Shown: positions 9,920-13,007, counted from the first letter of the stretch. The stretch is DNA of 64,000 nucleotides from Candidatus Poribacteria bacterium (GCA_963663765.2 CAXXUA010000005.1:1408001-1472000); one strand, 5' to 3'. Translations and numbers: made by a program. Notes: generated by a model from the sequence alone, not told the origin.

Positions 9920-10783
9920 ATGAGAGACTACTACGAAATACTCGGTGTCAAACGAAACGCCTCAGCAGATGAGATCAAAAAAGCATACCGTAAATTAGCA
10001 GTGAAATATCATCCAGATAAGAACCCTGGCGACAAAGCTGCTGAGGAGAAATTCAAAGAAGCATCTAATGCCTATTCGGTGCTATCTGATCCAGATAAGC
10101 GGCGAGTCTATAATACGCGTGGTCATGCTGGTGTTCACGGGATGGGTTTTGAAGGGTATACCAATGTGGAGGACATCTTCACACACATCAACTATAACGA
10201 TCTTTTTGGACGCGCAGCTCACGGAGGTTTTGGGGGCGCGTTCAGCGATGTCTTCGGTCCTCAACACCGAACGACACACACATATCGTGGACGAGATCAA
10301 CACCTAAACCTAACTATATCCTTCGCTGATGCAGTAAACGGAACTCAGAAAGACGTAAGAATCAGAGGAAAAAACATCACATTAAAAATACCCCCCGGGA
10401 TCAAAGACGGCCAAACGCTTCGCCTACGTGGACACGGTGAATCTATGGGCGCAGGACCAGCAGGAAACCTTTTAGTCAAAATTTCTGTTCAACCGCATCC
10501 ATCCTTAACACGCGATGGACTGGACTTGGTTACAGATGCCAAAGTGCCTATGACAACGGCAGCGTTAGGTGGCATCGTTCAAGTGCAAACGCTAACAGGA
10601 AATGTAAAGATCAAAATACCAGCAGGGGCACAACCCGGACAGCAGTTACGCCTACGTGGACAAGGCATATTAGACACATCCGGCAGAAATGGCGACCTAC
10701 GAGTCCGAATTGACGTGGAAATTCCAAAGTCATTGTCACGCAAACAGAAAGACCTACTAAAACAGCTTGCGAAGACACTATGA
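9920..10783 (+). CDS. DnaJ-class chaperone (CbpA-like, no Zn finger)
   Basis: J-domain with HPD, G/F region, DnaJ_C domain; no CxxCxGxG repeats. Confidence 0.93.
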
Positions 10784-11694
10784 CAAATGAAATTGCCAAT
10801 CCTGACGCAACATCACAATTGCCTGGACAATTTGACATTGTGACAAAGCATATTGTCCGCCAGAATCCTGATGAATGTATTAAATTTTGTCTTGGTACGC
10901 CAGATGCAGAAGCGATAGAAATACTTGAAACGGAGCAGCCGATTGTCAAATGGTTTCGAGCTGACAGTTTCATACACGCAAATGTTCACGGTGAAGAAGC
11001 CATTGTCCATCTGGAATTTCAGACACACGATAGCACAGAAATACCAATGCCGTATCGGATTGCAGGATATGCGGGGTTAGGGATACGGACGTATCAATTG
11101 CCAATATATTCACACGTAATTTATCTTCATCCTAATGCAGGACAGAACGATCCAGGAAAATACATCCAAGATTTATCAGGATATGAAGCCACAATCAAGT
11201 ATAAGGTCATCAGACTAAGTCAAATAGAAGGGCAAAACATTTTAGAAGCAAGACTGAAAGGACTCATTCCTTTCGCTCCATTGATGAAACCACCAGAGAA
11301 AATGGATTCCAAGACGTGGTTACGGCAATGTGTTGATGTCGCACAGACCATTCCAATGGACGAAGCGGACAAACCAGACTATCTTGCCTCTATGGCTATT
11401 TTGTCTGACATGATATTAAATTTTTTTGATATACGTAATATTTTTTCGGAGGAAACCATGCAAGAAACATCCTTTGCACAATATTTTACTGAAAAAGCCG
11501 AAAGAAAGGCTAACATTGAAAACATACTTAATGTGTTAGAATTTCGTTTTCAAACTGATGATGTGGAAACGTTGAAACCTATAATTGAAAACATTGAAGA
11601 ATTACAAAAGCTAAAGCAGTTGCATCAAGAGGCACTTCAAGTATCAAACCTTGATGGGTTCAAACGCATCTTAGCATCAAATGGAACTGGGTAA
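10780..11694 (+). CDS. Rpn/YhgA-like PD-(D/E)XK nuclease (recombination-promoting nuclease / putative transposase family)
   Basis: [34 protein letters not shown] motifs; internal GGAGG-ATG at 11448-11460. Confidence 0.85.
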
Positions 11695-11697
11695 ACC

Positions 11698-11934
11698 ATG
11701 CAAGAAACATCTTTTGCGCAATATTTTACTGAGAAAGCTGAAAGAAAAAATAGCATTGAATTACTTCTTGATGTGTTAGAAGTGCGTTTTCAACACAGTG
11801 ATGTGCAATTATTGAAACCTACGCTTGAGAATATTGAAGAAAATCAACGTCTTAGAGAGTTGATGCGTCAGGCAGTTCAAGTGCCAAGTCTTAATGAGTT
11901 CAAACGCATCTTAGTATCAAATGGAACTGGGTAA
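11698..11934 (+). CDS. Stand-alone Rpn C-terminal module, copy 2
   Basis: Begins [17 protein letters not shown], identical to the Rpn internal-start segment; 78 aa. Confidence 0.75.
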   Translation: MQETSFAQYFTEKAERKNSIELLLDVLEVRFQHSDVQLLKPTLENIEENQRLRELMRQAVQVPSLNEFKRILVSNGTG

Positions 11935-11938
11935 AACC

Positions 11939-12175
11939 ATGCAAGAAACATCTTTTGCACAGTATTTTACTGAGAAAGCTGAAAGAAAAAATACCATTGA
12001 ATTACTTATTGATGTATTAGAATTTCGTTTTCAAACTGACGATGTGGAAACGTTGAAACCTATAATTGAAAACATTGAAGAATTACAAAAGCTAAAGCAG
12101 TTGCATCAAGAGGCACTTCAAGTATCAAACCTTGATGGGTTCAAACGCATCTTAGCATCAAATGGAACTGGGTAA
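11939..12175 (+). CDS. Stand-alone Rpn C-terminal module, copy 3 (chimeric)
   Basis: ATG at 11939; 5' part like copy 2, remainder identical to the Rpn C-terminus. Confidence 0.75.
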   Translation: MQETSFAQYFTEKAERKNTIELLIDVLEFRFQTDDVETLKPIIENIEELQKLKQLHQEALQVSNLDGFKRILASNGTG

Positions 12176-12178
12176 ACC

Positions 12179-12412
12179 ATGCAAGAAACATCTTTTGCGC
12201 AATATTTTACTGAGAAAGCTGAAAGAAAAAATAGCATTGAATTACTTCTTGATGTGTTAGAAGTGCGTTTTCAACACAGTGATGTGCAATTATTGAAACC
12301 TACGCTTGAGAATATTGAAGAAAATCAACGTCTTAGAGAGTTGATGCGTCAGGCAGTTCAAGTGCCAAGTCTTGATGAGTTCAAACGCATCTTAACATCA
12401 TATAGGAATTGA
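12179..12412 (+). CDS. Stand-alone Rpn C-terminal module, copy 4
   Basis: Nearly identical to copy 2 except the last residues. Confidence 0.75.
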   Translation: MQETSFAQYFTEKAERKNSIELLLDVLEVRFQHSDVQLLKPTLENIEENQRLRELMRQAVQVPSLDEFKRILTSYRN

Positions 12413-12517
12413 ACCTTACCAAGAAAGGTTTACTACAACAACTCACAATAACACTATGAAGACATTTTGCCGATGCTTCAATCGGTTTTGGTATAGATGG
12501 CATAAAAGGGAGAGGTA

Positions 12518-12673
12518 ATACCATTTTCATGTGATAATGTCTCATTATCAGCGGAAATCTGGTAGGAGCGGAAATCTGGTCGCGACCGTGAGGTCGCTCC
12601 TACCGAAGAGAGTAACCCCCTGCCAGTAAACAGTAGAATTCCTTAATGAGACAAGATTTATTTGAATTGGTAT
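12518..12673. mobile_element. TA-flanked MITE (IS630-like) with REP doublet
   Basis: ATACCATTTTCA...TGAATTGGTAT flanked by TA; paralog at 17149-17364. Confidence 0.75.
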
Positions 12674-13007
12674 TATTCATGTTGTAGGTCCGATTTGGCA
12701 AGGAGGGAATAGAAGTGAACCTGAATCGTTAGCCGACTGCTATAAGAATAGTCTACACCTTGCAGCAGAAAATGGAATAAGGTCTATCGCTTTTCCTGCA
12801 ATTAGTACTGGCAACTTTAGTTATCCTATTGAACAAGCAACGTCTATTGCCCTGAATACCGTGAAAGAGTTTGTTGAACAAGCACATCAGAAAAACAAAA
12901 TGGTCCCAGAACGTATTCAGTTTGTTCTGTTTGATGAAGAATCTTATAACTGCTATGTCAAAGAACTTTCAAAACTTGGAATTGGTTTATCCTGTCTGAT
13001 TGGATAA
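12672..13007 (+). pseudogene. 5'-truncated macrodomain (YmdB-like ADP-ribose-processing) gene
   Basis: Hand translation IIHVVGPIWQGG..LADCYKNSL..SIAFPAISTG.F.YP..IQFVLFD; N-terminal half missing at the MITE junction. Confidence 0.8.

Follow-up and report, generated by a model that had tools for sequence, protein, structure and literature searches.

The question raised by this locus is why a single large gene should be followed, at a distance of three nucleotides, by three small open reading frames (ORFs) that repeat its own 3′ end. It lies in a stretch of 64,000 nucleotides of the genome of a Candidatus Poribacteria bacterium, a sponge symbiont (GCA_963663765.2 CAXXUA010000005.1:1408001-1472000); the whole stretch is referred to here as the window. 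The large gene, termed L, encodes 304 residues, and the three small ORFs are intact, lie directly downstream and are read from the same strand; together with the last 78 codons of L they form four units, U1 to U4 (Table 1). The reading favored here, to which we would give a probability of roughly 60%, is that L is a divergent Rpn-like nuclease with a nested antitoxin of the RpnS type, and that the three downstream ORFs are RpnSs-like copies serving as extra antitoxin in trans. For the proteins themselves, we infer nuclease activity, toxicity, the translation of each unit and binding.

The arrangement that gives this reading its frame has been described in Escherichia coli, where the small protein RpnS, made from an internal start, is reported to bind and block the toxic nuclease RpnL, and where plasmid-borne Rpn protects against phages (Zhong 2023, PMC10400941). 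According to the same report, a second copy of the small gene is located downstream of rpnE (where it is named ypaA) and, in some strains, of rpnC, and these copies cluster with the gene upstream of them (Zhong 2023, PMC10400941). The second copy is also mentioned in Koonin's commentary. Like RpnE/RpnE-S/YpaA (RpnE-Ss) and RpnC/RpnC-Ss, the locus in the window combines a putative nuclease gene with an in-frame internal Shine-Dalgarno (SD) sequence and ATG that would start the variable C-terminal helical domain.

Within the L ORF, GGAGG (11448-11452), AAACC (11453-11457) and an ATG (11458-11460) follow one another in frame. The last 78 codons of L recur as three separate intact ORFs starting at 11698, 11939 and 12179; the first 17 residues are common to all four units, and the anchor AAACCATGCAAGAAAC is found at 11453, 11693, 11934 and 12174. 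An earlier sequence-only reading of this DNA had pointed out both the internal start and the threefold repetition behind an invariant 17-residue head, and its coordinates for them were found to be exact. Tandem Repeats Finder describes the same structure as a period of 240 in 4.0 copies (81% matches, score 1243). U2 to U4 are 68-72% identical to the adjoining units (U4 is 97% identical to U2) and at most 48% identical to any other locus in the genome. The small ORFs are thus placed as RpnSs genes are, directly 3′ of an rpn-like gene, on the same strand and nearest in sequence to that gene's own S, and the suggestion that they are copies of the nested small ORF agrees with this published arrangement.

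The identity of L had to be approached through its family. At E ≤ 0.001, L has 545 homologues, none of them with a Pfam domain on record and nearly all unnamed; Candidatus Poribacteria is the source of several, and JGI gives one entry the name 'predicted transposase YdaD'. In species genomes, 513 stretches of the L family were confirmed, mainly in metagenome-assembled genomes (MAGs) of Poribacteria and Latescibacterota. The related-locus comparisons used 80 loci kept from these, which belong to Poribacteria, Latescibacterota, two Gemmatimonadetes MAGs and one Caldilineaceae MAG. The loci L077-L118 carry the L family at 42-51% identity in MAGs labelled Latescibacterota, Gemmatimonadetes, Caldilineaceae and Poribacteria, and one Latescibacteria genome (OY282377.1) supplies 10 of the 80 loci.

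In an alignment of 43 family sequences, D62, H77, E79, M90, R93 and Y97 are invariant, and D19 and Q81 are near-invariant (90% or more). In RpnA, the predicted active site is reported to consist of D11, D63, E82, Q84 and R94, mutation of which abolished or altered activity (Kingston 2017); Q84 there takes the position of the K of the PD-(D/E)xK core. L residues D19, D62, E79, Q81 and R93 correspond to these in order and in spacing, the D-to-R distance being 31 residues in both proteins. The AlphaFold2 (AF2) model of L, with a predicted local distance difference test score (pLDDT) of 86.8 and a predicted template-modelling score of 0.80, places D62 at the beginning of a strand (62-69), and E79 and Q81 within another (72-81). 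A wide VIA-align search with the N domain gave as best match NucS (2vld_B), at a moderate Z of 8.4 with 102 aligned residues and a root-mean-square deviation of 3.1, followed over residues ~10-165 by the further PD-(D/E)xK nucleases VC1899 (Z 7.1), AF1548 (6.6) and R.BspD6I (6.4), and by Can2, Card1, Cap4, SdaI, PaqCI, XisH, BstYI and FokI at Z 4.9-6.2. Foldseek returned no match for L at E ≤ 0.001, its top weak rows being restriction-type nucleases. In PDB sequence-profile searches the matches obtained, 4d0o for A1 and the designed repeat protein 7udk together with 2fjl for A2, were discarded as spurious.

A link to the E. coli proteins was obtained with hidden Markov models (HMMs) in two-sequence tests. 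The F-family N-domain HMM matched residues 55-114 of E. coli K-12 RpnE (16.0 bits, E 6.2e-07), in an alignment that spans the signature core with a local two-residue shift at ExQ, while the C-module HMM matched residues 2-50 of E. coli YpaA (14.3 bits, E 4.5e-06). The nearest clusters in the ESM Atlas (score 0.97) are cyanobacterial proteins named 'Rpn family recombination-promoting nuclease/putative transposase', some with DUF2887 and DUF4351. From the signature residues, the PD-(D/E)xK-like fold, the RpnE and YpaA matches, the conserved internal SD and ATG and the (GIEQ)n repeats of its paralogs, we conclude that L is a putative divergent Rpn-like PD-(D/E)xK nuclease that falls outside the Pfam family as now modelled, its activity and toxicity being predicted.

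The internal start is a feature of the family. Among 58 related L genes that could be parsed, which are related sequences and so do not give independent counts, 57 have ATG as the junction codon and one has GTG; GGAGG stands upstream of it in 44, and a four-base core in six more. At the -3 Glu codon, 56 of the 58 use GAG, versus 869 GAG to 850 GAA elsewhere in the same ORFs. This bias at a synonymous site argues for a functional ribosome-binding site and not merely a conserved Glu-Glu pair. The paralogs share the junction motif SEE[TI]MQES. It is probable, as far as sequence can tell, that the C-terminal 78 residues of L are also made separately from GGAGG-N5-ATG as an RpnS-type protein. Past the junction Met, by 10-20 residues, (GIEQ)n-type four-residue repeats are present in 13 of the 17 further paralog copies of the genome, and also in many orthologues. 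RpnS is likewise described as having four-residue repeats; they lie in its long first helix and begin 8-20 residues past the initiating Met, 'where they have been inserted' being the phrase used (Zhong 2023, PMC10400941). No four-residue repeats occur in L or in any of U1 to U4.

The small module is predicted to be helical: in the AF2 model of U2, whose pLDDT is 88.9, a long helix at 6-30 precedes a small helical bundle, with further helices at 49-61 and 65-74 and two short turns. The RpnA-S dimer has been solved (PDB 7TH0, cited in Zhong 2023, PMC10400941), and RpnS in it is described as a three-helix bundle with a long first helix through which it dimerises (Zhong 2023, PMC10400941). For U2, 7TH0 was not among the matches in PDB sequence profiles, Foldseek or VIA-align; Foldseek had no match at E ≤ 0.001, and the VIA-align matches were set aside as generic helical bundles, the best (Z 8.2) being a designed fibre. 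DUF4351 (PF14261) has no match on the units, and genome-wide at E ≤ 1 it finds only canonical Rpn tails, all below cut-off. When L was co-folded with U2 the score was 0.33, and the best of 3 controls scored 0.00, which lends weak support to binding; contact agreement between the runs was 72% or higher, and the pLDDT of the partner was at least 76. The pass mark of this assay is reached by 58 of 80 solved complexes and by 2 of 110 mismatched pairs, and at scores of 0.60 or below there are only 7 of those 80 complexes, plus both passing mismatches. The pass may reflect a likeness to the solved RpnA-S dimer 7TH0.

Put together, the favored reading would work as follows. By analogy with E. coli RpnL/RpnS, S would bind the matching helical domain of L, a predicted DNA endonuclease, via the long first helix of S and keep the nuclease inactive, so that L and its nested S would make up a one-gene toxin-antitoxin or defence module. 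An old type-B copy would have been expanded in this lineage, by unequal crossing-over and gene conversion, to the present order A-B-A′-B. Because each stand-alone ATG lies only 3 or 4 nt past the preceding TAA, the stand-alone copies would most likely be translated by termination-reinitiation. They could serve as extra antitoxin in trans, since their first helix has the same length as that of L, and through the same homology they would be able to recombine with the 3′ end of the L gene.

The array is real DNA and not an assembly artefact, because its unit-specific junctions recur in contigs from three studies. The read evidence consists of Logan contigs from four runs; contigs give neither the number of units per molecule nor rare variants. 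In runs X1 and X2, from two studies, contigs cross from U2 to U3 (11863-11992 and 11723-11992) and cover the U3 mosaic described below (11964-12070) with 0 differences, and an X2 contig covers the U3 to U4 junction (12041-12232), again with 0 differences. Run X6 comes from a third study and bears a different host label; in it, one contig spans 11813-12203 with 8 differences and 2 gaps, both gaps falling in the stop-start spacers (11933 and 12173). The X6 strain, ~2% diverged, has 14 listed substitutions in U2-U4, none of which creates a stop, and all frames are open. In X7, the sole joint in the array ('goes back 241'), at depth 2 in one contig, is what is expected of any tandem repeat. Such arrays are hard to assemble, as a run of N inside the array of L044, a short-read MAG, illustrates, and inflation of one unit to four by mis-assembly was the artefact that the sequence-only reading had proposed to check with reads. 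With the U2 to U3 junction, the U3 mosaic and the U3 to U4 junction all present in independent contigs of runs from three studies, that explanation is hardly credible and was rejected.

As regards its content, the array is less varied than the 'diversified array' or library of variant modules that had been supposed. There are only two body types, in the order A-B-A′-B, all equal in length to the L tail. Identity within types is 220/237 nt for U1 and U3 and 225/234 nt for U2 and U4, while between types 175-191 nt of 234-237 are identical. U3 is a mosaic, as its column patterns are B-like over the first ~75 nt and A-like over the remainder. All codon differences between U1 and U3 are located at or before codon 34, and their 3′ 150 nt differ at one site. 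U2 and U4 are identical through codon 65 and differ only in the last ~40 nt, with 7 changed positions, all at the array end, where the 3′ end of U4 resembles the terminal unit of the related locus L042 and the 3′ end of the L gene of the species G016. The exact order of crossovers that gave A-B-A′-B has no unique reconstruction; at least two events are needed, because one unequal crossover would leave three units, five units or an incorrect order.

The recency of this expansion is also the starting point of a neutral explanation, according to which the ancestral B copy may function and U3 and U4 are a recent neutral tandem duplication, to be lost again. Unequal crossing-over happens readily in repeats of this type. 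Tandem Repeats Finder reports a second period of 481 in 2.0 copies with 96% matches (score 1770), and this, together with the identity of U2 and U4 over their first 65 codons, speaks for a recent expansion. The loss and gain that such an explanation expects can be seen between species. At syntenic loci of other Poribacteria species, recognised by a DnaJ-like gene upstream and an aminotransferase or macro-domain gene downstream, the number of downstream copies is 0 (L041, G016), 1 (L039, L040, L042), 2 (L043) or 3 (G020). In the 80 related loci, a same-strand stand-alone unit lies downstream in eight (L039, L040, L042, L043, L044, L053, L062 and L067), with a maximum of two, and 72 have none. 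Of 31 genomes sampled from the genus, the window's own included, 21 have a match to U2 at E ≤ 1e-12.

Three observations count against a purely neutral origin. The same build, L followed by three S copies, arose separately in G020, with a different junction: this species has two tandem L genes (L130, G020:C1:1878000-1885000, minus strand), the first followed by one unit and the second by three, and its gaps are 18 nt long with a degenerate SD (GCAGGAAACT). The array is, moreover, present in three studies, including the ~2% diverged strain, with all frames open, and the indels between strains are confined to the stop-start gaps. Neutral duplication of U3 and U4 is improbable in our estimation. 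Between species, the ratio of nonsynonymous to synonymous substitution rates (dN/dS) is 0.12-0.28 for the first downstream copy and 0.08-0.18 for the nested copy, with dS near saturation, and comparison of U2 with the orthologous downstream copies in L039, L040 and L044 gives 0.18-0.28. The first downstream copy (type B) is under purifying selection. In L039 the nested unit is A-like and the downstream unit B-like, and comparison across species indicates that the A and B types are old and shared with related species.

The window's genome (6.35 Mb, 15 contigs) holds 18 L-family copies, three of them 5′-truncated and one with an in-frame stop. Four other L-family loci of this genome have one stand-alone unit each, with homology from 0-30 nt upstream of the ATG. 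The sequence-only reading had tied the duplication boundary to the start codon, and this agrees with most loci; it does not hold at C4:253834-255329, where partial copies have their boundary deep in the N domain. At C4:252778-255329 (L004, L017), two incomplete copies with frames of 251 and 213 aa lie in tandem behind a full L; they are devoid of the catalytic D/ExQ part and have kept the internal SD and ATG and an S module with 4-6 GIEQ repeats. A comparison with relatives for similar arrays had also been proposed, and the 0-3 copies of the syntenic loci, with the three units of G020, provide them. The repeats vary in number along these loci. In G020, the first L has 12 repeats and its stand-alone unit 3, and the second L has 3 repeats and its units 1, 2 and 0. 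In G003 (L131, G003:C1:5412000-5418500), the L tail at 1598-2041 contains ~18 consecutive GIEQ-type repeats, the longest run seen, and two units lie ~1.1 kb further downstream of L.

Recombination between the units and the L gene is visible in G016, the closest relative. In G016, the L N domain is identical to that of the window at 211/226 aa and 632/678 nt, and the C-terminus of L is B-type, with 65/74 and 66/74 aa in common with U2 and U4 and 49/74 with U1. There is no array in G016; the aminotransferase gene comes directly after L, whose 3′ end is like that of U4. Since A and B are ancestral, the G016 array has most likely collapsed by recombination between heads, an event like the one reported from E. 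coli (Zhong 2023, PMC10400941). B is likewise fused to the N domain in G029, and G027 has an A-head/B-tail mix. At the level of sequence comparison, the U3 mosaic and the forms found in G016, G029 and G027 show sequence exchange between the units and the L 3′ end; a programmed switch is not shown by these data.

These exchanges allow another role for the units, namely as a reservoir of cassettes kept mainly as donors that replace the L 3′ end and thereby change the oligomerisation and specificity helix together with the nested antitoxin. In its strongest form, head-anchored recombination of the stand-alone S library would re-tailor the pairing helix of the nuclease and its nested antitoxin in one event, a proposal that we consider unlikely. 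The B head and A tail of U3 and the near-identity of the last 150 nt of U1 and U3 indicate that the L 3′ end and a cassette have recently exchanged sequence, and the B-type tail of G016 behind the same N domain, the fused and mixed forms of G029 and G027 and the graded repeat numbers in G020 are what donors would leave behind. In the X6 strain, 4 nonsynonymous changes in U2/U3 yield the residue that is present at that codon in another unit. In E. coli, rpnSs has been reported to be lost where the N domain became fused to the rpnSs region (Zhong 2023, PMC10400941). On the other side, these outcomes are between species and do not show a programmed or frequent switch, and the contigs of the four runs, which drop rare variants, contained no junction of the N domain with B. 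In addition, the units possess start codons of their own and show purifying selection at the protein level, neither of which a silent donor needs; no dedicated recombinase or inverted repeats are apparent, and the window has only two cassette types. A main role as donors is unlikely, albeit less so than a neutral by-product, and it retains an appreciable probability. If cassette switching did occur, it would reset the self-recognition code of a defence toxin, for example in escape from phage mimics or from cross-inhibition by paralogs, and the graded series of G020 (3; then 1, 2, 0) and the exchange of A for B in G016 would represent individual moments of this process.

Polymorphic toxins (CdiA-CT, Rhs) with orphan C-terminal modules, and the silent cassettes of antigenic variation, have tandem variant modules downstream of a gene and a conserved 5′ head for recombination. 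The locus resembles them in genetic layout only, with tandem modules that share a head at which the C-terminus is replaceable. Orphan cassettes are each followed by a cognate immunity gene and usually lack a start of their own, whereas the units here have their own ATG, gaps of 3-4 nt and no interleaved or immunity genes, and the module would be an inhibitor and oligomerisation domain, not the toxic domain. Of the earlier idea that recombination supplies C-termini as orphan cassettes do, the exchange itself stands, as in the U3 mosaic and the B cassette of G016, and the comparison with orphan cassettes holds for genetic layout only.

A further alternative is that the small proteins serve other Rpn paralogs or incoming alleles, by cross-neutralisation or anti-addiction, and not the adjacent L. 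The genome has six canonical PF04754 Rpn genes besides its 18 L-family copies, and mismatches in repeat number between a stand-alone copy and its neighbour do occur at other loci; one copy in the C4 cluster, located after F09, agrees with the C-domain of F07 and not with that of F09. In the window, however, all four units are closest to the adjacent L, and the best match of U2 outside the locus, at C4:494335-494532, is 48% identical and belongs to a paralog with four GIEQ repeats versus none here. Neutralisation of several Rpn paralogs, which had been put forward for the array, was rejected on this similarity, and we consider service to other paralogs or incoming alleles very improbable. The six canonical genes themselves match PF04754 at E 1.8e-32 to 3.3e-25 and have tails with GIEQ or EEGR repeats, and canonical Rpn loci have stand-alone tails of their own downstream, one or two (C15:339748-340559; C15:455918-456599).

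Returning to the favored reading of L as an Rpn-like nuclease with RpnSs-like copies, a number of results weigh against it. Regarding the nuclease, no Pfam or NCBIfam family was found at E ≤ 0.1 for the 304-aa L, only chance-level rows for L and the units, and no PADLOC model matches either. PF04754, PF12784 and PF14261 have no match on L; genome-wide, PF04754 matched six other genes and none of the 18 L-family genes, and PF12784 one unrelated weak match. Among the 43 family members PF04754 was found once, weakly (E 0.059), a search of the genome with PF11103 (DUF2887) at E ≤ 1 gave nothing, and when the N domain was compared by hhalign with those of the six canonical Rpn proteins of this genome, the result was weak, with E 0.04 and a probability of 1.3%. 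The claim that L is an Rpn nuclease is thus upheld by residues, fold, the RpnE/YpaA HMMs and the internal SD and ATG, and the family-model search that had been proposed as its check was without a match. Regarding the small module, a repeat-free tail HMM reached canonical Rpn C-termini only at E 0.056-8, which shows that the C-module HMM owed its good scores on canonical Rpn tails largely to GIEQ repeats; with the repeat-free HMM, of the seven distinct frames from outside the family that rank below the orphan C5:651541, six nevertheless lie at canonical Rpn loci.

Other adverse points concern the copies and their role. U1 and U2 differ at 25 of 78 residues, the stand-alone units are without the GGAGG of the internal start, and U3 and U4 are too recent for any selection test. 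Elsewhere, at every other locus examined, the first helix of the stand-alone copy differs in length from that of the adjoining L by multiples of four residues (L039, L040, L042, L043, L053, G020, F06, F09, F10, F11 and E. coli rpnE/ypaA). In E. coli, the addition of one repeat to RpnC-S or RpnC-LS alone is reported to abolish neutralisation (Zhong 2023, PMC10400941). On the strength of that experiment, mismatched copies elsewhere would not neutralise their neighbour, and an extra dose of antitoxin may not be the general role of stand-alone copies.

Compared with known systems, the locus shares most with RpnE/YpaA, in that a copy of the domain lies directly downstream on the same strand, derives from the upstream gene and belongs to a family with four-residue repeats in the first helix. 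It differs in having three tandem copies instead of one, of two sequence types with a mosaic; in its gaps of 3-4 nt without a separate strong SD, whereas ypaA has AAGGAG 12 nt past the rpnE stop; in copies that equal L in helix length, YpaA having one repeat more than RpnE; and in an N domain that is not recognised by PF04754. E. coli K-12 ypaA (L134 7817-8002) carries a pseudogene flag in RefSeq, and rpnE is flagged 'inactive ... nuclease-like'. With the canonical Rpn/YhgA-like proteins (PF04754 Transposase_31, DUF4351-type tails), L shares a three-part build of nuclease core, conserved middle and variable tail, and those of the same genome also have tails with (GIEQ)n or (EEGR)n repeats and stand-alone tail copies, up to two; L nevertheless belongs to a separate sequence family, with a D-to-E spacing of 17 versus 19 residues. 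The cyanobacterial Rpn clusters with DUF2887 and DUF4351 (284-315 aa) are its language-model nearest neighbours, a kinship that is a lead and is not shown by alignment, and unlike in these clusters, PF11103 has no match in this genome. A single stand-alone copy and its fusion are already published, and the three-copy array is new within the literature searched: no paper on arrays of RpnS copies was found in the literature on DUF4351, on RpnS/RpnL or on Rpn with Poribacteria or sponge, although the supplements of Zhong 2023 (Fig. S1B, S3, Dataset S1) may show multi-copy cases.

Around the array, L and the DnaJ/CbpA-like gene upstream of it share the ATGA at 10780-10783, in which the start of L and the stop of its neighbour overlap. 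A DnaJ-like upstream neighbour is also found in L039, L041, L042, L043 and L053, and in L040 and L044 a large, repeat-rich, Ser/Thr-kinase-like ORF stands upstream instead. On the + strand, promoter and terminator scans, which were not above shuffles, placed no promoter- or terminator-like site inside the array; the hairpin past U4 is possibly the end of the transcription unit. The adjacent 162-bp repeat has 643 blastn high-scoring segment pairs in the genome (~200 full-length and ~570 over the hairpin core), and contig depth at 12516-12677 spikes by orders of magnitude in all four runs. This repeat sits at the truncation point of a macro-domain gene that is intact at the syntenic L039:5247-6941, where it encodes 565 aa with OB-fold, HSDR_N-like and Macro domains. 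The interval from the DnaJ-like gene to the aminotransferase differs in content from species to species.

Table 1. Features of the L locus, in window coordinates, and canonical Rpn genes elsewhere in the same genome
Feature	Coordinates	Strand	Remarks
DnaJ/CbpA-like J-protein gene	9920..10783	+	Pfam DnaJ 1.2e-29, DnaJ_C 2.7e-42
L gene, putative divergent Rpn-like PD-(D/E)xK nuclease	10780..11694	+	N domain residues 1-226, C-terminal helical domain 227-304
Predicted active-site residues	10834..11058	+	D19 10834-10836, D62 10963-10965, E79 11014-11016, Q81 11020-11022, R93 11056-11058
Internal Shine-Dalgarno GGAGG, 5-nt spacer, ATG (codon 227)	11448..11460	+	predicted nested start
U1, type A, nested S frame, 78 aa	11458..11694	+	same as L C-terminus
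U2, type B, stand-alone S copy, 78 aa	11698..11934	+	ATG 3 nt past L stop (TAA ACC ATG)
U3, mosaic, 78 aa	11939..12175	+	ATG 4 nt past U2 stop
U4, type B, terminal unit, 77 aa	12179..12412	+	distinct 3′ end (SYRN*)
Terminator-like hairpin and T-rich run, 57 nt past U4 stop	12469..12486	+	consensus scan: 3 sites vs 2.4 expected in shuffles
162-bp interspersed repeat with GTAG-tagged REP hairpin	12516..12677	.	borders array, not part of system
Macro-domain gene remnant, last 107 codons	12684..13007	+	Pfam Macro 5.3e-18, profile positions 62-118 only
Canonical Rpn genes	C3:462893-463504, C5:202155-202781, C3:296927-297526, C5:1265815-1266405, C15:458265-458861, C15:338379-338996		PF04754

The principle of an Rpn toxin with a nested antitoxin was set in E. 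coli, with at most one extra copy of the antitoxin. The same build, with a conserved internal start, repeats and stand-alone copies, would be present in a large family that Pfam, NCBIfam and PADLOC miss, and Rpn-type modules are under-counted because current models do not recognise it. Extra copies can multiply into arrays with as many as three members, and these recombine both among themselves and with the putative toxin gene. On the other hand, the near-constant mismatch in repeat number between copy and toxin, read with the published mismatch experiment, questions a simple 'more antidote' role for them. These arrays would constitute a natural allelic series for the specificity between RpnL and RpnS and for the hypervariability of the tail.

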